Shown here: piece after piece, positions 5,310-21,521 of the stretch
How the letters are laid out: each line of letters opens with the position of its first letter
Numbering within the stretch: position 1 is the first letter of the stretch
Virus record (IMG/VR): IMGVR_UViG_3300031993_000053
Span: 9,502-73,501 of that record
Direction: 5' to 3' (one strand)
Length of the DNA: 64,000 nucleotides
From: a virus
Taxonomy: Duplodnaviria > Caudoviricetes
Notes under the pieces: generated by a model
What the model was told of the DNA's origin: nothing
Seen by the model: the letters and a program-made list of their open reading frames with translations, nothing else
The model's database searches: none
Program-made: the position numbers and the translations under genes

Positions 5310-5384
5310 AGCGGAGTAGAGGAAAGGTACCTCGTGAGACTCATAACCTCAAGGTTGGTGGTTCGAGTCCACCCTCCGCCACCA
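5310..5384 (+). tRNA. tRNA-Met (CAT), initiator-like
   Basis: Cloverleaf AGCGGAG/CTCCGCC, D-stem GAGG/CCTC, anticodon loop CTCATAA, T-loop TTCGAGT, encoded CCA; A1.C72 mismatch and A11-U24. Confidence 0.93.
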
Positions 5385-5580: not shown

Positions 5581-5597
5581 AATGAAAGGAATAAAAT

Positions 5598-6170
5598 ATG
5601 GGAAATGAATTGAAGCGAACTAAATTAGGTGAATGGTTATTTAATTCAGTAAATAAAGTGAGTCTTTATATTGCATATCATAAAGTATTATTTTATATTT
5701 TATCATATACATGGGGACTAATTACAACACTATTTGGTTGGATTGTTTATTTATTTTTAAGAATATTTTTTAAAAATAAAATTCAATTAAAAGGAAAATT
5801 TTTTACAGCAAGATATATAATGTTATTTGATGAATGGGGTGGTCTTGAACTTGGCACAAATTTTATATTAGCTGGTAATATGGGAAAATATTTTACCGAG
5901 CATACAAAGTGTCATGAACTCGGCCACACTTATCAAAATGCGGCCCTCGGGCCCTTTGCTATAATATTTATCTTTATTCCTTCTGTTATACAATATTGGA
6001 TTCAGCGACTTAGAAAAGATCAATCTAAGAATAAGCCTTATGATTTAATTTGGTTTGAAGGTTCAGCAACTTATATTGGTGAAACTTTATTATCAAATTT
6101 AGAGCATAAAGATTATCATTATTATAATGAGCAATATCAATTCAATAACAATTATGGAGCAAATATATGA
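5598..6170 (+). CDS. membrane-anchored zincin-like (HExxH) protein
   Basis: N-terminal TM segment; KCHELGHTYQNAALGP; second acidic motif WFEGSA. Confidence 0.65.
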   Translation: MGNELKRTKLGEWLFNSVNKVSLYIAYHKVLFYILSYTWGLITTLFGWIVYLFLRIFFKNKIQLKGKFFTARYIMLFDEWGGLELGTNFILAGNMGKYFTEHTKCHELGHTYQNAALGPFAIIFIFIPSVIQYWIQRLRKDQSKNKPYDLIWFEGSATYIGETLLSNLEHKDYHYYNEQYQFNNNYGANI

Positions 6171-6574
6171 ATATAGCAGATAAAGAAATAAAAAAATTTT
6201 TTGACGATCTTTTAAATAAATATATAGAAGAATATATAGAAGAAGACTTAAATTCTACTGTAAATGCTTATAAATATGAACCAAATAATTTTGATGAATT
6301 AATGATGGATGGATATTGTTATCATATTTTAAATAAAGAAGCTTTAGATTATTTTCTATTTCGTAGAAAAACTTTTGAAAGTATAGATCAAATTAAATTT
6401 TATCAAGATCTTTTAAATTGTAATAATTCAATAGTATTTTATTATAATCAAAAATTAAAAGTGTTTCAAACGTTTATAGTTGGAAAAGTTGATATTAAAG
6501 AATTAAAAATATATTTAAAAGAATTAACAGAAAGAGAAGATATTAAATTAATTAAGGTAGGAGTCAAAACATGA
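6167..6574 (+). CDS. hypothetical protein
   Basis: ORF track, ATGA coupling. Confidence 0.65.
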   Translation: MNIADKEIKKFFDDLLNKYIEEYIEEDLNSTVNAYKYEPNNFDELMMDGYCYHILNKEALDYFLFRRKTFESIDQIKFYQDLLNCNNSIVFYYNQKLKVFQTFIVGKVDIKELKIYLKELTEREDIKLIKVGVKT

Positions 6575-6825
6575 AAAAATACATAGTAAGAGTTCAGTAT
6601 ACAGAAAGGCATGATTTAGTTGAACTAATAAAAGCTAAAGATGATTATGATTTAGAAAAAATTTTATATAAAAATTATAAAAATTATTTTGATTTAATTG
6701 ACGGATTTGAATACGACAAAATTAAAAATTATATGTTTAGAAAAAAGAACCAACCGTGGCTATTATGTGGGTCATGGATTGGTGCTGATTGTTTAAAGGA
6801 GTTATATGAAAATAGAAATAACTAA
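6571..6825 (+). CDS. hypothetical protein
   Basis: ORF track, AGGAG RBS. Confidence 0.6.
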   Translation: MKKYIVRVQYTERHDLVELIKAKDDYDLEKILYKNYKNYFDLIDGFEYDKIKNYMFRKKNQPWLLCGSWIGADCLKELYENRNN

Positions 6826-7507
6826 AGACCCTTATTATGAAGGAGATTATATTTTTGATAACGATTTATTAGAATTAAAAGAAAATTCAATAACTTGTTT
6901 TGTTGGTTGTAATGGTTCAGGCAAAACTACATTACTTCATAGAATTAGGGATTACTTAAAAAAGGATTGTAAAACAAATGAAATCAAGCATGATTTTTAT
7001 GGGCATGCTTTTGATAAAGCAGTAAAAATTCTTTTTGATGAAGATGATTCTGAACCGGATTTATATTTTTTAGATTTTGATAAAGATAGTAATGTAACTT
7101 ATACTGAGTCTGACTATTTTATGAATGCAGCTGGTATTGCATATTCATCAACTGGTGAAGGAATAGTTGATCGTCTTGGTAAAAATATGCAACTATTAGG
7201 ATCAACTATTAAAGATTTACATGATACTAAATTAATAATATTTTTTGATGATTGCGATGCTGGAACATCTATTGATATGATTAATGAAATTAAAAATGTA
7301 CTTAAACATATTATTAATACTTGCAAGAAACAAAATATAACTTATTATATTTTATTAACTTCAAATTCATATGAAATGGCAAGAGATTTAAACTGTGTTA
7401 GTGTTCATGATTTTAGTGAGCAACATTTTAAAGATTATGAAGATTATAAGCAATTTGTTTTAAAAAGTAGAGAAAGAAAAAATAAGAGGTTTAAAGAAAA
7501 TGATTAA
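6806..7507 (+). CDS. stand-alone ABC-type ATPase
   Basis: Walker A GCNGSGKTT, signature-like SSTGEG, Walker B IIFFDDCD. Confidence 0.8.
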   Translation: MKIEITKDPYYEGDYIFDNDLLELKENSITCFVGCNGSGKTTLLHRIRDYLKKDCKTNEIKHDFYGHAFDKAVKILFDEDDSEPDLYFLDFDKDSNVTYTESDYFMNAAGIAYSSTGEGIVDRLGKNMQLLGSTIKDLHDTKLIIFFDDCDAGTSIDMINEIKNVLKHIINTCKKQNITYYILLTSNSYEMARDLNCVSVHDFSEQHFKDYEDYKQFVLKSRERKNKRFKEND

Positions 7508-7880
7508 AGATTATTTTGAAAAACTTGATGACTTTGTTTGTATAAATATAAATGAACATGAATTATCATATTCAAGCGATCATTGTAAAGATATTGATGA
7601 AGTAATAAATTGCTTAGCATATCTTGAAAAATTTAAAAATATTGAAGAAGATTTTGGTTTAGATTTATTAGAAATTTTAACAGCAAAAGTTGTTTATATA
7701 AAAGTTATTACAAACATAGCTCCACTTAAACGAAATAAAATTGTAAAAGTAAAAAATTTTAAATTTGATTTTAATAATAAAATTATGCAAATATTCTGTG
7801 ATGGTGGCTTATATAATGAAAGCTTTGATAATTATAAAATAACTTGGTCTTTTAATAAAGGAGATTTAAAAAATGACTAA
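7500..7880 (+). CDS. hypothetical phage protein
   Basis: ORF track; coupled. Confidence 0.65.
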   Translation: MIKDYFEKLDDFVCININEHELSYSSDHCKDIDEVINCLAYLEKFKNIEEDFGLDLLEILTAKVVYIKVITNIAPLKRNKIVKVKNFKFDFNNKIMQIFCDGGLYNESFDNYKITWSFNKGDLKND

Positions 7881-8322
7881 TATTGAATGCGATAATTTAA
7901 TAAATAATTCTCTTAATGATATTTTTAAAAATCATAAAGATAGTAAAGAAGTTATAAATAAATTAGATGGTGAGCTTGATCTTCACCAAAAATTAATTTT
8001 ATTAAGCTATTATTTAAAATATAAATTTGTTAATAAACCAGATAATGAAATTGAATATAAAAATGAAGATAGTTTACCAAATATAATAAAGGAAATTATT
8101 CCATTTATAGTTCATGATACTGCTGATACTGTTTATACTTACAGAAAAACTTCTGATAGTATTTTAATAAAAAATGTTATTTTTGAAATTTATAAATTAT
8201 TTGAACTTGGTAAAACAAGATTTAATAGAACTACTATTACAATGACAAATGATACCTATAAAACGGCAATGGACTTTTTTAAAAGAATTTTAAAAGATAA
8301 TGGCTTATTAAAAAGGCAATAA
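7873..8322 (+). CDS. hypothetical protein
   Basis: ORF track; coupled. Confidence 0.65.
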   Translation: MTNIECDNLINNSLNDIFKNHKDSKEVINKLDGELDLHQKLILLSYYLKYKFVNKPDNEIEYKNEDSLPNIIKEIIPFIVHDTADTVYTYRKTSDSILIKNVIFEIYKLFELGKTRFNRTTITMTNDTYKTAMDFFKRILKDNGLLKRQ

Positions 8323-16200: not shown

Positions 16201-17091
16201 ATGTCTGCAAGAGATACATTAAAATTAATAAATACTACTAATCTTATTAGTGCTGGCTTAAAATATTGTTTGGTCAGCACTGATAAATTACCATTTAAAA
16301 TCAATGGTAAAATTTTACAACCTAATAATATTAATGATTTTGTATCTCTTAAAGAATTAGAAGATTGTAAAATTTTAGATGATTTTGCTGGTATTGGTAT
16401 TTCTATTCAAGGAAGTAATATTTGTGCAATAGATGTAGATCATTGTTTTTCTGTTCCATTTGATCAAAAATCGGCCGATAGGCGAGCTCTTGATGTTATA
16501 GAGAAATTTAAAAATATTGCATATATTGAATTTAGTTTTAGTGGGACAGGACTTAGATTATTATTTAAACATCCATTAATTGAATGTTATAGTAGATTAT
16601 TTTATATTAAAAATAGTAAAAATCAAATTGAATATTATGAGCCAAGTAAAAGTTATAGATATGTAACGCTTACTGGAAGGAGTATAATTAATAATAATAT
16701 TCATGAATGTCCAGATTCCATACTATATAATTTTCTCAATACTTATATGCTTAAGCCTATAAAAGATGACAGAAGCGAAATTTTAAGCCCTAAAATTGAA
16801 ACTAGATCTTTTGAAGAAATATTTGAAAATGTTAAGTATCATTATTTAACAAATCATGTATTTCAAGATAGATGGTTTGGAAAGGCACCTGGTGCTGGAA
16901 AAGATGAAAGTGAAAGAGATTATTATATAATAAATTATATTTATACAAATATTACACAAGATAAAAAAATGATTAAACAAATATTTGAATCAAGTCCTTA
17001 CTTTAAAAGTAAAGATCATCAACATGTGTATAAATGGAATTATAATGATAACCGTTATCTTAATTTCATTTATGATCAAATAAGGAGATAA
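16201..17091 (+). CDS. primase-polymerase (AEP superfamily)
   Basis: AIDVDHC, YIEFSFSGTGLR, IEYY...RYVTLTG, C-terminal DESERD helical domain. Confidence 0.8.
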   Translation: MSARDTLKLINTTNLISAGLKYCLVSTDKLPFKINGKILQPNNINDFVSLKELEDCKILDDFAGIGISIQGSNICAIDVDHCFSVPFDQKSADRRALDVIEKFKNIAYIEFSFSGTGLRLLFKHPLIECYSRLFYIKNSKNQIEYYEPSKSYRYVTLTGRSIINNNIHECPDSILYNFLNTYMLKPIKDDRSEILSPKIETRSFEEIFENVKYHYLTNHVFQDRWFGKAPGAGKDESERDYYIINYIYTNITQDKKMIKQIFESSPYFKSKDHQHVYKWNYNDNRYLNFIYDQIRR

Positions 17092-17092
17092 T

Positions 17093-17419
17093 ATGAATAA
17101 TAAAGATTTTGAAAAATTAGTTGATGAACAATTTGAAATGTGTAAATCTGTTTTATGTAATAAATCTAAAGAATATGATTTTGGCGAAGATAGATTACAT
17201 AGTTTTAAAGTTGCTAGCCAGCTTTTAAAAAGCACGCCAGAAGAAGCTTTAATGGGATATTTAACTAAACATATTATGAGCTTATATGATATGGTGCCAG
17301 AAATTGATAAGTTTAGTTATGATAAATTTAATGAAAAAATAGTCGATATTTTAAATTATTGTTTATTATTAAAAGGTCTTCTTTATGAAAGGAAAAAGAT
17401 TGATGAGTCAAGCAGATAA
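17093..17419 (+). CDS. DUF1599 / nucleotide-modification-associated (MazG-like) protein
   Basis: KSKEY...DRLHSFK...TKH..S..D...EKIVD..NY pattern. Confidence 0.65.
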   Translation: MNNKDFEKLVDEQFEMCKSVLCNKSKEYDFGEDRLHSFKVASQLLKSTPEEALMGYLTKHIMSLYDMVPEIDKFSYDKFNEKIVDILNYCLLLKGLLYERKKIDESSR

Positions 17420-18242
17420 ATATTTTATTGAAGAAACTTTTGATCTTTTAACAAAAGGATTTAACGATAAAGATTTTAATGTTAGGCCACATTGGTCTGA
17501 TGGAACTCCTGCTCATACAATTAAAACTTTTTGTAGAATTAATAGATATGATTTATCAAAAGAATTTCCGATCCTTACATTAAGAAAAGCTCCATTTAAT
17601 TATGCAGTAAAAGAAATATTATGGATTTTTCAAAAAAAATCAAATAATATAAATGATCTTGATAGTCATAATTGGGATTCATGGGCAGATGAAAATGGAT
17701 CAATTGGAAAAACATATGGTTATGTAGCAGGCGAAAAATATGAATATCCAGAAGGATTAATGGACCAAGTTGATAATGTTCTTTGGTGCTTAAAAAATAG
17801 ACCAATGGATAGGCGAATGATAATTCAATTATTTAGACCAGAATATATAAAAGAATCTGGTTTGCCGCCATGCTTGTGTTCATATTTTTTTGATGTTGCT
17901 GGAGATAAATTAAATATGACTGTTATTATGCGTAGCTGTGATATGCTAAGTGCAGCAGGAGCTGGTGAATCTGATGAAATTGGAATGGCAATTTTACAGC
18001 ATATGTTTGCGCAAGTATCTAATTTAAAAGTTGGCGAATTAGTAGTTATTAAAAATAATTTTCATGTTTATGATAGGCATTTAGATATTGTTAAAAAAAT
18101 ATGTAATAATAAAGCCTATGTAGCACCAACATTTTGGATAAATCCAGAAATTAAAAATTTTTATGATTTTAAGCCTGAAGATTTTAAACTTATCGATTAT
18201 AATTATACAAAATTAGAAGAAAAAATTGAGGTAGCAATATGA
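17403..18242 (+). CDS. thyA: thymidylate synthase superfamily enzyme (N->D variant; possible dCMP (hydroxy)methylase)
   Basis: RRM, LPPC (catalytic Cys), RSCD, HVYDRH; specificity Asn position reads Asp (GAGESDEIG). Confidence 0.85.
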   Translation: MSQADKYFIEETFDLLTKGFNDKDFNVRPHWSDGTPAHTIKTFCRINRYDLSKEFPILTLRKAPFNYAVKEILWIFQKKSNNINDLDSHNWDSWADENGSIGKTYGYVAGEKYEYPEGLMDQVDNVLWCLKNRPMDRRMIIQLFRPEYIKESGLPPCLCSYFFDVAGDKLNMTVIMRSCDMLSAAGAGESDEIGMAILQHMFAQVSNLKVGELVVIKNNFHVYDRHLDIVKKICNNKAYVAPTFWINPEIKNFYDFKPEDFKLIDYNYTKLEEKIEVAI

Positions 18243-18655
18243 AAATTAAATTATTAGGTGATACTAAATGTCCTGAACGTAAAAGAAAAAATGATTGTGG
18301 TTGGGACTTTTATCTAAATGATTTTGTTTGTTTTCATAAGGGTGAAACAACAACTGTTGATACTGGCGTTTGTGTTGAGATTCCTGAAGGTTGGGCTGGA
18401 TTATTTGCATTAAGAAGCTCAATTTGTAAAACTGGTTTAACTCTTCAAAATCCATTAGTGGATAACAATTATAGAGGTGAACTTCATCTTTTAATAACGA
18501 ATAATACAGATAAAGATTTTTGTTTTTATAAGGGTGATAGAATTGCATCATTATATTGTTTTCCATACTTAACTGAAGATTTAGAAATTGTTGAAGAATT
18601 AAGTGAAACAGATCGTGGAGATAAATGGAACGGAAGTTCCAATCAGATAGCTTAG
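18239..18655 (+). CDS. dut: trimeric dUTPase family protein
   Basis: Motifs CGWDF, RSS, VDNNYRGE, GDRIASL, RG..WNGSS. Confidence 0.85.
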   Translation: MKIKLLGDTKCPERKRKNDCGWDFYLNDFVCFHKGETTTVDTGVCVEIPEGWAGLFALRSSICKTGLTLQNPLVDNNYRGELHLLITNNTDKDFCFYKGDRIASLYCFPYLTEDLEIVEELSETDRGDKWNGSSNQIA

Positions 18656-18869: not shown

Positions 18870-19715
18870 ATGGAAAAAAATGGTTGCTACGTTTATAAAC
18901 ATACTTGTATAATTACTGGAAAATCATATATTGGTTGGTGTTCAAGAAATCCAAAATATCGTTGGGGTAAAAATGGTTCAAATTATTTAGTAAAAAGTGG
19001 GGATAGATTATTTGACCATAAAAAATTTGCTCCTGCAATTTTAAAATATGGATGGAATAATTTTACACATGATATACTATTTTATAATCTTACTGAAAAA
19101 GAAGCATTAGAAAAAGAAAAAGAAATGATAATAAAATATGATTCTTTTAAAAATGGTTATAATAGCACTCTTGGTGGTGATGGTAGTACAGGTAGAAATC
19201 ATACAGAAGAATCTAAAAATAAAGTATCTGCAACAAAACTTAAATCGAGTAAAATTATTTATTGTTATAATAAATTTGGTGAATTAGTTTGCGCTATGAA
19301 AGGTTATAAACAAATTGCAAAATATTTAAATTTACCAAGCGGAGGAATTGCTGATTGTTGTATAAAAGTTAAAGACCAACATAATTCACATAGAACAGCA
19401 TATGGATATGTATTTGCAAATATAAAATTAACTAAAAATGAAATCAAAAAACGATATGAAAGTTATAAAAAGAAATTTGATTGTATTTATATGTATGATA
19501 TTATTAGTGAAAAATTAATAAATAAATTTTATTCCTATGAAGAAGCGATTAAAAATTCTAATATATGTAGAAGTAGTATATCAGGGTGTTGTAATGGTAG
19601 AACTCGTTTTGTAAAAAATTATATTTTTTCATTTAAAGAATTATCTAAAAATGAATTATTATTAAGAAAAAAATATTTTAATATAAAACATAAAAGGGAG
19701 TTGAATAATTATTGA
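18870..19715 (+). CDS. free-standing GIY-YIG homing endonuclease with NUMOD repeats
   Basis: CYVY...SYIG...R...; GYNSTLGGDG; NUMOD3 GRNHTEESKNKVS; two NUMOD1-like repeats. Confidence 0.92.
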   Translation: MEKNGCYVYKHTCIITGKSYIGWCSRNPKYRWGKNGSNYLVKSGDRLFDHKKFAPAILKYGWNNFTHDILFYNLTEKEALEKEKEMIIKYDSFKNGYNSTLGGDGSTGRNHTEESKNKVSATKLKSSKIIYCYNKFGELVCAMKGYKQIAKYLNLPSGGIADCCIKVKDQHNSHRTAYGYVFANIKLTKNEIKKRYESYKKKFDCIYMYDIISEKLINKFYSYEEAIKNSNICRSSISGCCNGRTRFVKNYIFSFKELSKNELLLRKKYFNIKHKRELNNY

Positions 19716-21521
19716 ATTTAATTATCTATGATTTCGAAGTGTTTAAACGAGCGTGTTTGCTAGGAACAATTATAGTAAAAGAAACGGGAGAAGAAAAATT
19801 ATTTCAAACATGGGATTTAAATACGATCAAACAATTTTATTTAGATTATAAAGATGATTCTATTTTTGTTGGATGGAATAGTAAATATTATGATGATTTA
19901 ATTTTAGAAGCAATTATTAAAAATAAAGATCCATTTGAAATATCTAAAAAAATTATCGAAAATCATGAATCATTGTGGTGTAATTTAAAATTTTATACAT
20001 ATGATGTTATGAATACTGGATTTGCTAGCCAGATATCATTAAAATTAACTGAACTTATATCAGGCGATTCTGTTGAAACAACAGAAGTTGATTTTAATCT
20101 TGATAGGGATTTAACGGAAGAAGAAAAAAAATTAACTGAAAAATATAACCAAGCTGATTTAAAAAAGACCTTTTATAATTTTAAAAAAATATATGATCGT
20201 TTTGAATTAAGACTTGGAATTATTAATGATTGGAATCTTAATTTAATGAAATGTTTAAACATGACTGGTGCTCAAATAGCAGCAGAAGTGCTTCAAGCAA
20301 AAAAAGATCCATCATTAGAATTTAAACCAGTCAAACCAATTTTATATGATAATTTACAAGTTGAAAATAAACAGGCTTTAAATTATTATTTAGAAGAAAA
20401 ATTTAGAATTGGTAACTATTTTGAAACAATAAAAATTGGAAATGCTGAGTTAACTCTTGGCGCAGGAGGCTTACACCAAGCCATTAAGAAGTGTTATTAT
20501 GACCGCTTAATGTACTTGGATGTGCGGCTTCGGCCGCAAATGAGTTAGCGGATATTATAATTTAATAGAAATTAATTTTGATTTGTTTTCAAGAACTATC
20601 TCAGAAGAAGGCAAACGTCGTTATAAAATGATGTATGATCAACAAATAGAACTTAAAAAAATTAATCCAGATTCACCTAAGCGTAAACAATTTAAAACAA
20701 TTTTGTTATCTGTTTTTGGTGCACAATCTTTTGAGGGATCTGCATTTTATGACCCATATATTGGTAAATTAATTCCAATAACAGGCGAATTATTTATGAT
20801 TGACTTTCTTGAAAAAATTCACCATTTATGTACAATAGTTCAAACAAACTCTGATGGTGCAATGATTAAACCTAATTCTGATGAAGCTGAAAAAGAAATA
20901 TTAAATATTTTAAAAAGTTGGCTAGATCGAACAAAGTTTGTAATTAAACCAAAATATATTTATGACCTTGTACAAAGAGATGTCAATAACTATGTTTATA
21001 GAGATGAAAAAGGAAATCTTGAAGTTAAGGGTGAAGCATTAAAAAATTATAATTTTGATGATAAAGAATATTCAGCAGGAACAATATTTAATTGTAAAGA
21101 GCCTTCAATAATTGCTAAAGGTGTTGTTGATTATTTAATGTATGATATATCACCTGAAGAAACTGTTGATAAATATAAAGAAGATTTAAGATTATTTCAA
21201 TATGCTTGTAAAAAAGGTGGATATAATTATTTAACATATGATACTGTTTATTATCCATCGCGAGAAACTAGTTCATATGAAATACAAAGCCCGAGTCGTG
21301 TTTTTGCTTATAATTCTAATACTGAAGCTGGTATGGTTTATAAGCACGGTATAAATAAAAAATCTGGTAAAATATCTCAAGCTAAAGTATCTAATTTACC
21401 AGATAATGTATTTATTTATAATGATAGTATTATTGGAAAGTATGAAGAATTAAAAGATAAAATCGATTGGCAATATTATGTTGATCGTATATATGAAAAA
21501 ATAGAAAATTTTATATCATAA
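19712..21521 (+). CDS. family B DNA polymerase, interrupted in motif A by a 22-nt insert
   Basis: Exo motifs YDFE, GWNSKYYD, YNQAD; removing 22 nt restores LDVSGYYNLIEINFDLFSRT; motif B KTILLSVFG; motif C QTNSDG; reconstructed length 595 aa. Confidence 0.88.
20522..20546 (+). other. candidate translational bypass element (GUG take-off, GUU landing, UUCG hairpin)
   Basis: GAT GTG|CGGCTTCGGCCGCAAATGA GTT|AGC GGA TAT; stem TGCGGC/GCCGCA. Confidence 0.65.

Follow-up and report, generated by a model that had tools for sequence, protein, structure and literature searches.

The window analyzed here is a stretch of 64,000 nucleotides (bases 9502-73501) from a 73.5-kb IMG/VR virus record (IMGVR_UViG_3300031993_000053) that is rated complete by CheckV and has a G+C content of ~27%. 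It encodes a thymidylate synthase (TS) homologue, a ThyA-family enzyme predicted to methylate dCMP, between the genes for a 108-residue protein (p108) and a trimeric-type dUTPase homologue. All three genes are part of a long plus-strand replication operon. The upstream order is PD-(D/E)XK nuclease, AAA_24 ATPase, a possible single-stranded DNA-binding protein and a primase-polymerase (16201-17091); downstream of the dUTPase follow a GIY-YIG homing endonuclease (18870-19715), a DNA polymerase in two open reading frames (ORFs) and the large terminase. Packing of the three genes is tight, overlapping and operon-like: the p108 ORF starts 2 nt past the primase-polymerase stop, the TS start (17403) overlaps the end of the p108 ORF, and the dUTPase ATG and the TS stop share the sequence ATGA. 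A megablast search of the region against phage genomes returned no match. The features of the block are listed below, with TS residues numbered as in E. coli ThyA.

17093-17419, plus strand: p108, 108-residue protein modeled as a four-helix bundle, phrog_6802; recurrent upstream partner of Asp-type ThyA genes
17403-18242, plus strand: ThyA-family enzyme of 279 residues, predicted dCMP C5-methyltransferase (5-methyl-dCMP synthase) (PF00303; 1B02; L143/D169/D177)
17862-17864, plus strand: TTG codon, Leu at the Leu143 column (alignment)
17940-17942, plus strand: GAT codon, Asp at the Asp169 column (alignment)
17943-17972, plus strand: loop between Asp169 and Asp177, 10 residues (MLSAAGAGES) where 7 are otherwise found, a hallmark of the clade (alignment)
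17973-17975, plus strand: GAT codon, Asp at the Asn177 column, the pyrimidine-specificity residue (HMMER, MAFFT)
18239-18655, plus strand: trimeric-type dUTPase homologue of a variant subfamily (PF00692, 2.9e-21)
18533-18553, plus strand: dUTPase motif 4, GDRIASL, with Ser for the usual Gln (subfamily alignment)
18614-18640, plus strand: dUTPase motif 5, RGDKWNGSS, with Trp-Asn for the usual Gly-Phe (subfamily alignment)

A ThyA-family enzyme with Asp at the specificity position

The product of the central gene matches PF00303 with an E-value of 3.6e-62 (210 bits, cut-off 24.3) and scores above the cut-off of TIGR03284 (136 versus 108 bits) and below the equivalog cut-off of NF002495 (219.8 versus 327 bits). 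Its best solved relative is B. subtilis ThyA (PDB 1B02; HMMER E 1.4e-59), aligned over the full length. The longest ORF (285 residues) starts at 17385; translation most likely begins at 17403, yielding the 279-residue product, because AGGA lies ~10 nt before that ATG and homologues begin with MS.ADKY. In the original prediction, an Asp encoded by GAT at 17973-17975 had been placed at the column of the conserved TS Asn. This was borne out by two alignments. In the HMMER alignment to 1B02, the query Asp (within GESDEIG) falls on the Asn of the PFN motif; in a MAFFT alignment with E. coli ThyA, phi3T ThyP3 and the dCMP hydroxymethylase T4 gp42, the query Asp falls on the same column, equivalent to E. 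coli N177 and T4 D179 (Asp197 of the 285-residue ORF, Asp191 of the 279-residue product). Counterparts of all catalytic residues are kept (E58, W80, W83, Y94, R126/R127, C146, R166, S167, D169, H207 and Y209), as is the C-terminus, which ends ...EVAI in the query and ...PVAI in E. coli. The resulting signature is L143/D169/D177, with a 3-residue insertion that extends the loop between positions 169 and 177 from seven to ten residues.

The Asp is a shared feature of the query's relatives. Nearly all of the best 120 homologues from a collection of 5.8 billion proteins carry RS.D.LAAAGAG..D, and the Asp is invariant in an alignment of 39 close relatives. The closest protein relatives (P0002-P0007) are 83-85% identical, and genomic context was drawn from IMG/VR loci at 50-63% identity and one metagenome contig (L086). 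A FastTree phylogeny was built from 213 sequences, comprising homologues, representatives of 50%-identity clusters, IMG/VR locus proteins, E. coli ThyA, phi3T ThyP3 and T4 gp42. The query fell inside an all-Asp clade of 99 rows (support 100), itself nested in a clade of 144 rows with 141 Asp and 3 Asn (support 99). The larger clade adjoins the one holding canonical E. coli-type and B. subtilis-type enzymes, and T4 gp42 sits far off on a very long branch. Since the Asp is invariant in the 39 close relatives and present in 141 of the 144 clade rows, it is a selected state and no chance substitution. L143/D169/D177 is read in every Asp-type row of the clade (>140). A loop of length 10 was found in 147 rows (138 Asp, 9 Asn), and one of length 7 in 61 rows (55 Asn, 6 Asp), canonical ThyA included. 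Position 147 co-varies with 177, being Leu or Val alongside Asp and Ala, Cys or His alongside Asn.

At least nine Asp/Asn changes are required on the tree. Asn revertants lie inside the long-loop clade (P0092, P0098 and L035, with L024 recognized by motif alone), and isolated Asp forms occur among short-loop enzymes (L057, P0199, P0229 and P0318). Closely related long-loop sequences were also seen to differ only at residue 177 (GGFDTIEY versus GGFNTIEY), with L024, L035, P0092 and P0098 set against L020, P0085 and P0099. From these sequences, specificity for dCMP and for dUMP would seem to have been exchanged repeatedly in nature within the long-loop clade. In addition, many cluster representatives of the TS family (P0171-P0179, P0183, P0207 and others) are 330-550 residues long and matched the query in two separated stretches; these genes probably contain inteins or other insertions.

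Predicted dCMP methylation and its alternatives

Expectations for such enzymes come from several published studies. TS mutants with N177D (E. coli) or N229D (L. casei) are dCMP methylases. In MetaGPA, no Pfam family was more strongly associated with cytosine modification of viral contigs than the TS domain, which occurred together with domains of PRA-PH pyrophosphohydrolases and dCMP deaminases; modified and unmodified contigs were best told apart by residues 177 (Asp in the modified ones) and 147 (PMC8670742). IMG/VR has been screened for Asp177 TS homologues, and five of seven metagenomic ones, together with the enzyme of phage Xp12, made 5-methyl-dC (5mdC) in vivo, with linked deaminases proposed to turn 5-methyl-dCTP (5mdCTP) into dTTP (bioRxiv 10.1101/2024.12.05.627091). 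According to the product rule of a 2026 paper, residue 177 decides between dUMP and dCMP, a bulky hydrophobic residue 143 leads to a methyl product and Asp or Glu at 143 to a hydroxymethyl product, and D169N characterizes flavin-dependent 5-hydroxy-dCMP synthases (PMC13326640).

Where canonical dUMP-specific TS have Asn177, the query has the Asp177 of dCMP-utilizing homologues. It has Leu143 and a full C-terminus where T4-type dCMP hydroxymethylases have an acidic residue 143 and a truncated C-terminus, and Asp169 where 5-hydroxy-dCMP synthases of the RB69 gp48 type have Asn. Both the bulky hydrophobic residue 143 and the Asp169 of Xp12-type 5-methyl-dCMP synthases are present. The query and all Asp-type clade rows read Leu143, Asp169 and Asp177, the signature of a 5-methyl-dCMP product under this rule. 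In textbook TS enzymology, the C-terminal tail together with Trp80 and Trp83 seals the active site for hydride transfer, and the kept tail, Trp80, Trp83 and Tyr94 of the query fit such a step. By analogy with the rules for mutant and natural enzymes, from which we infer both substrate and product, ORF 17403-18242 is predicted to encode a dCMP C5-methyltransferase that puts 5-methylcytosine (5mC) into phage DNA at the nucleotide level, with a probability of roughly 0.65. The original prediction had the phage making 5-methyl- or 5-hydroxymethyl-dCTP as a defense against restriction; cytosine modification at the nucleotide level by an Asp177 ThyA homologue was upheld, and the product was narrowed to the methyl form by Leu143, Asp169 and the C-terminus.

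In the proposed mechanism, a folate-dependent ThyA-family enzyme would have switched its substrate from dUMP to dCMP and retained reductive methyl transfer, its products being 5-methyl-dCMP and dihydrofolate. The 5-methyl-dCMP would be phosphorylated by a host kinase or some phage kinase, and the phage polymerase would presumably insert 5-methyl-dCTP into phage DNA. DNA containing 5mC would be expected to resist many restriction enzymes, as in Xanthomonas phage Xp12. The p108 protein may supply or channel dCMP (e.g., as a small dCTP pyrophosphatase), and the variant dUTPase would act as part of the replication module, at least keeping dUTP out of DNA.

The TS homologue is the sole one in the complete 73.5-kb genome. 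Targeted profile searches of the genome found no ThyX, no C5 DNA methyltransferase and no PRA-PH domain, and PHROG and Pfam scans of ~40 other ORFs detected neither a kinase nor a transferase (glycosyl-, carbamoyl- or other). The only candidate nucleotide kinase is a 233-residue P-loop ORF (6806-7507) with generic Walker-A similarity and 12 bits to thymidylate kinase.

Several observations weigh against dCMP methylation. The genome scans revealed no dNMP kinase, dCMP/5mdCTP deaminase, dihydrofolate reductase (DHFR) or recognizable dCTPase, and a targeted profile search for dCMP/cytidine-family deaminases in the genome was likewise negative. Such genes accompany the enzyme in Xp12-like phages; as they were not found here, full replacement of cytosine cannot be predicted. 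Neither T4 gp42 nor the ThyA of phage PaMx74, a relative of the validated enzymes, has the 3-residue insertion beside Asp177, and this insertion could change specificity or product. Position 177 also appears to be evolutionarily labile, as judged from the interchange of Asp and Asn in the clade (L024, L035, P0092 and P0098). Finally, in published tests no 5mdC was obtained with two of the seven Asp177 homologues (bioRxiv 10.1101/2024.12.05.627091).

An ordinary thymidylate synthase that converts dUMP to dTMP, tolerates the Asp and feeds the dTTP demand of a 73% A+T genome would agree with the retention of all catalytic residues, with the Asn revertants within the clade and with the nearest solved and characterized relatives (B. 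subtilis ThyA and phi3T ThyP3), which are genuine TS; elsewhere, dUTPase and TS genes grouped with that of a small helical protein have been interpreted as a dTMP pathway (bioRxiv 10.1101/2021.07.29.453957). It is difficult to reconcile with the conservation of the Asp (141 of 144 clade rows, and all 99 rows of the query's subclade), with the preference of N177D mutants for dCMP (PMC8670742) and with the 5mdC made by natural Asp177 enzymes (bioRxiv 10.1101/2024.12.05.627091). Positions 147 and 177, which co-vary in the clade, are moreover the same two that separate modified from unmodified contigs in MetaGPA (PMC8670742), and we regard an ordinary TS as quite unlikely. Another possibility is that dCMP is used to form a different C5 product, 5-hydroxymethyl- or 5-hydroxy-dCMP, which would open a hypermodification pathway. 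T4 gp42 and RB69 gp48 are Asp177 TS homologues with such products, the uncharacterized clade-specific loop insertion adjoins Asp177, and many of the genome's ORFs lack an assigned function. The query, however, keeps Leu143 and Asp169 in place of the D/E143 and N169 markers and retains Trp80, Trp83 and the C-terminal tail that T4 gp42 is without, and no glycosyl-, carbamoyl- or other transferase was detected in the genome scans, making this outcome unlikely in our view.

It is also conceivable that 5-methyl-dCMP serves mainly as a route to thymidylate through deamination of 5-methyl-dC nucleotides, with the phage DNA left largely unmodified. Xp12-type systems are documented to deaminate 5mdCTP to dTTP (bioRxiv 10.1101/2024.12.05.627091), and the genome has a high dTTP need and no other TS. 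Nevertheless, no dCMP/cytidine-family deaminase is encoded, and in the documented cases the DNA is fully 5mC-substituted all the same; a thymidylate route of this kind is considered very unlikely. Of these readings, methylation of dCMP for incorporation of 5mC into phage DNA is the one we prefer.

Neighboring genes and related loci

Indirect support for a DNA-modification role comes from the exchange of cassettes at this site in related phages. Synteny of locus L078 with the window extends from the PD-(D/E)XK nuclease to the terminase; the L078 slot matching p108 and ThyA (5590-7911) holds a T4-like cassette directly after the primase-polymerase gene. By Pfam, this cassette comprises a dCMP-family deaminase (PF00383), a thymidylate-kinase-like P-loop protein, a gp56-family dUTPase_2 (PF08761) and a divergent TS homologue of 246 residues. 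In locus L076 (1-1463), similarity to the L078 products identified a deaminase gene, a dUTPase_2-like ORF represented by its C-terminal end, and a TS homologue like that of L078, all ahead of the dUTPase and polymerase. As the slot of p108 and ThyA is filled by this other set of genes in L078 and L076, the site is one that hosts base-modification modules, and pyrimidine-modification modules are habitually carried there in this phage lineage. In the active-site region, the divergent TS homologue reads RSNS...PID, by eye with Ser at 169 and Arg at 143, a combination outside the published product rule. The position of the GIY-YIG gene also differs between loci, being in the dUTPase/polymerase gap in the window (18870-19715) and in the TS/dUTPase gap in L086 (1007-1846); in several further Asp-type TS loci (L022, L023, L042-L046), GIY-YIG genes lie directly 3' of TS.

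The p108 protein matches phrog_6802, a family without assigned function, at 2.4e-29, and no Pfam family even at an E-value of 10. It had been described in the original prediction as Nmad-, DUF1599- or MazG-like, a label that is left as a lead. No match of p108 to hidden Markov models (HMMs) of PF07659 (DUF1599), PF01503 or MazG was obtained, 27 relatives scanned singly matched neither DUF1599 nor MazG at E-values up to 1, and PF07659 was found neither in six frames of the phage's own genome nor in five related viral records. For p108, neither a profile search of PDB sequences nor an hhalign comparison with T4 gp56 returned a match. The one link to DUF1599, an indirect one, is that PF07659 occurs in 11% of the members of the nearest ESM-Atlas cluster (score 0.97). 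An AlphaFold (AF2) model using 27 homologues gave a confident four-helix bundle (per-residue confidence score, pLDDT, 90.4). The sole solved structure covering all four helices was AF_0060 (2P06), with a Foldseek probability of 0.94 and E-value of 0.47; in VIA-align it gave the best structural match (Z 8.1, root-mean-square deviation 3.5, 84 residues), a Z score that is common for helical bundles. MazG entries matched the model with Foldseek E-values of 1.8-2.8. AF_0060 is, we assume, classed with the all-alpha nucleoside triphosphate (NTP) pyrophosphatases. Judged from the model, p108 is possibly a small nucleotide-binding or NTP-pyrophosphatase-like protein.

Invariant residues of p108 include K24, E27, Y28, D33, K59, H60, S63, D66, E81, K82, D85 and Y89, and a first metal motif of the EExxE type is not evident. 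Its E-K-I-x-D-x-x-N-Y helix aligned with the EEITDSLNF helix of the gp56-family dUTPase_2 of L078 (hhalign E 0.009, 22 columns only), and p108 showed a weak hhalign match to the C-terminal part of PaMx74 gp53 (E 0.056, 64 columns); HMMER/hmmsearch gave no significant match to either protein. PaMx74 gp53 itself (L088, 41389-42126, minus strand) has an N-terminal PRA-PH domain and an unannotated C-terminal part (approximately residues 150-245) whose K-x-K-D-Y and D-L-V-N-Y motifs resemble p108.

When IMG/VR loci were searched with the p108 family HMM, a copy was found upstream of TS in 19 of 37 Asp-type loci versus 1 of 17 Asn-type loci (Fisher's exact p 0.002, for loci that are not phylogenetically independent). 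The single Asn-type locus is an Asn revertant of the same clade. In most of the 19 loci p108 lies within ~0.9 kb of TS, the furthest being 5.6 kb away, and in L086 a p108-like ORF ends just before TS. Unannotated p108 homologues also occur in Arthrobacter, Gordonia and Flavobacterium phages and in ANMV-1, and no TS gene is annotated within 3.5-4 kb on either side of the homologues in three actinophage and Flavobacterium phage records. Overall, p108 is a recurrent partner of the long-loop TS clade and is not exclusive to it. A further step would be to view the long-loop Asp177 ThyA and p108 as a distinct two-protein module for modified dCMP, independent of the T4 and Xp12 systems, with p108 as a new, minimal dCTP pyrophosphatase or a specificity/channeling subunit and, in this phage lineage, the variant dUTPase clearing dCTP; taken as a whole, we consider this proposal rather unlikely.

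The dUTPase homologue matches PF00692 at 2.9e-21 and scores below both NCBIfam cut-offs (TIGR00576 and NF001862). The altered motifs pointed out in the original prediction, GDRIASL (18533-18553) and RGDKWNGSS (18614-18640), are both present. These departures are shared by 46 or 47 of 59 homologues, and the 12 most distant homologues keep canonical motifs. In the subfamily, motif 2 reads RSS.C and motif 3 P-L-[IV]-D-x-N-Y-R-G; in motif 4 an invariant Ser replaces Gln, and in motif 5 (R-G-x-x-W-[NAS]-G-S-S) the Phe lid is gone and Trp is invariant. Because the same departures are common to so many homologues, the protein appears from its sequence to be a selected functional variant and not a product of decay. 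Loss of the catalytic Asp, suspected from DNNY in motif 3, was rejected: the best PDB matches are Staphylococcus phage Dut proteins, in whose alignment VDNNYRG pairs with IDAGYHG and the first Asp, the catalytic one, is kept. Kinship of this trimeric dUTPase with T4 gp56 was likewise discarded, the two being unrelated.

The variant dUTPase lies directly before the polymerase in L078 and L076. L086, with a polymerase 88% and an Asp-type TS 73% identical to those of the window, has another dUTPase whose motif 5 keeps Phe (RGTNAFGSS), and most further Asp-type TS loci have dUTPases of the RGEGAFGST type a few kb away. The variant subfamily follows the polymerase lineage rather than TS. It has nonetheless been considered whether the variant trimeric dUTPase could act as a dCTPase, or as a dCTPase/dUTPase, to clear dCTP and provide dCMP, taking the role of T4 gp56 on another fold. 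The changes shared by 46 homologues fall in base- and phosphate-contacting motifs with the motif 3 catalytic Asp kept, the dUTPase start codon overlaps the TS stop, and all members of the lineage that were seen carry some pyrimidine-modification cassette. As the variant tracks the polymerase and occurs without an Asp-type ThyA, its place in a dCTP-removal cassette is nevertheless speculation. In L076 and L078 it coexists with a gp56-family dUTPase_2, L086 and most Asp-type TS loci have dUTPases with the motif 5 Phe, and we know of no trimeric-fold dCTPase, which also counts against such a role. We therefore hold the role to be doubtful; if true, a dCTP-clearing variant would be the first example of a dCTPase with the fold of trimeric dUTPases.

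The motif B sequence KTILLSVFG, which had been read as lacking the usual Asn, is present in the second polymerase ORF, but a connection of the missing Asn with modified dNTPs has no basis. The motif reads KKLLLAVFG and KKICLAVFG in relatives, and the peculiarity is a lineage trait, common to all polymerases of this lineage. To our knowledge, T4, which uses 5-hydroxymethyl-dCTP, does not need such a change. The window polymerase matches phrog_1252 only and no Pfam PolB model; as the intact L078 polymerase has no PDB sequence match, the reading as PolB motif B rests on phrog_1252 and on motifs read by eye. The polymerase ORF is split just past the Asp-Val of motif A by a 22-nt insert (20525-20546, region 20519-20552), a GC-rich hairpin with a UUCG loop between the Val codons GTG and GTT, with stops in both frames. 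L078 and L076 are uninterrupted at this site (MYLDVSGYYNL). The insert looks like a translational bypass of the T4 gene-60 type. L086 (JAEIGA010076085.1, 3255-3285) has a frame-breaking insert of 5 nt at the same codon (GAC GTC CG GTT TCG), also flanked by two Val codons, which argues against a sequencing error in the window. Elsewhere in the window, a tRNA-Met (CAT) gene is located among the early genes (5310-5384).

Comparison with known enzymes and phages

Asp177 TS homologues from viromes are already known and partly validated, with such enzymes described from Xp12 and metagenome screens. The window enzyme belongs to an uncharacterized Asp177 clade that evolved independently, is marked by its loop insertion and has a small protein as a recurrent partner. 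If the predicted activity is correct, cytosine would be replaced with 5mC at the nucleotide level in this phage of the rumen or gut and in its metagenomic relatives, which number well over a hundred; this would bear on the restriction and modification-dependent defenses that they evade or trigger, on the behavior of their DNA in sequencing and cloning, and on the reading of viromes. The p108 protein and the variant dUTPase subfamily offer well-defined targets for assigning new nucleotide-pool functions.

Among the neighbors, DUF1599/Nmad1 (PF07659) resembles p108 in being a small helical protein encoded beside TS and dUTPase genes, and a dUTPase-ThyX-DUF1599 block has been described in viruses (bioRxiv 10.1101/2021.07.29.453957). 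The dUTPases of Staphylococcus phages (phi11 and 80alpha Dut) share the PF00692 family and the catalytic Asp of motif 3 with the window dUTPase, which differs from them by Ser for the motif 4 Gln and by Trp-Asn in motif 5.

For the TS homologue, the closest parallel by substitution is provided by E. coli ThyA N177D and L. casei TS N229D, in which the same single change in an otherwise complete TS leads to methylation of dCMP (PMC8670742). In contrast to these mutants, the Asp of the query is natural and conserved and comes, in the clade, together with a loop longer by 3 residues and with Leu or Val at 147. B. subtilis ThyA and phi3T ThyP3 are ~40% identical to the query over the full length and have the same N-terminal extension and C-terminus, but they have Asn177 and a short loop and are dUMP-specific.

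Phage PaMx74 (Pamexvirus, the genus of Xp12) is said to replace cytosine with 5mC (bioRxiv 10.1101/2024.12.05.627091). In order of transcription, its cassette encodes a hydrolase of 245 residues whose N-terminal domain is of the PRA-PH type (1.2e-15), followed by ThyA, a dCMP-family deaminase and DHFR. Like the query, PaMx74 gp52 is a ThyA-family member with Asp177, a hydrophobic residue 143 and Asp169, and its predicted product is 5-methyl-dCMP. Both thyA genes lie directly 3' of a gene for a small hydrolase or helical protein, a layout that counts in favor of dCMP methylation in the window. Unlike the query, PaMx74 ThyA has a 7-residue loop and Val143/Pro147 and is only remotely similar, and the PRA-PH hydrolase, deaminase and DHFR of its cassette were not found in the window genome. 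As PaMx74 ThyA falls outside the query's 144-row clade on a long branch (FastTree only), the window enzyme appears to represent an independent Asp177 lineage that belongs to neither the Xp12 nor the T4 clade.

T4 gp42 shares with the query the Asp at the specificity position and, if the prediction holds, dCMP as substrate and the action of a phage enzyme on nucleotides before replication. It differs by Asp143, the lack of the C-terminal segment, a length of 246 residues, its very distant position in the tree and its hydroxymethyl product. The 5-hydroxy-dCMP synthases RB69 gp48 and DLP3 gp80 are likewise TS homologues with Asp177, but they carry D169N and L143E and use flavin (PMC13326640), whereas the query has Asp169 and Leu143. 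To the T4-type and Xp12-type enzymes, the clade described here adds a third line of Asp177 ThyA homologues that arose independently, and it therefore offers a natural test of the published rule that predicts the product from residues 143, 169 and 177.

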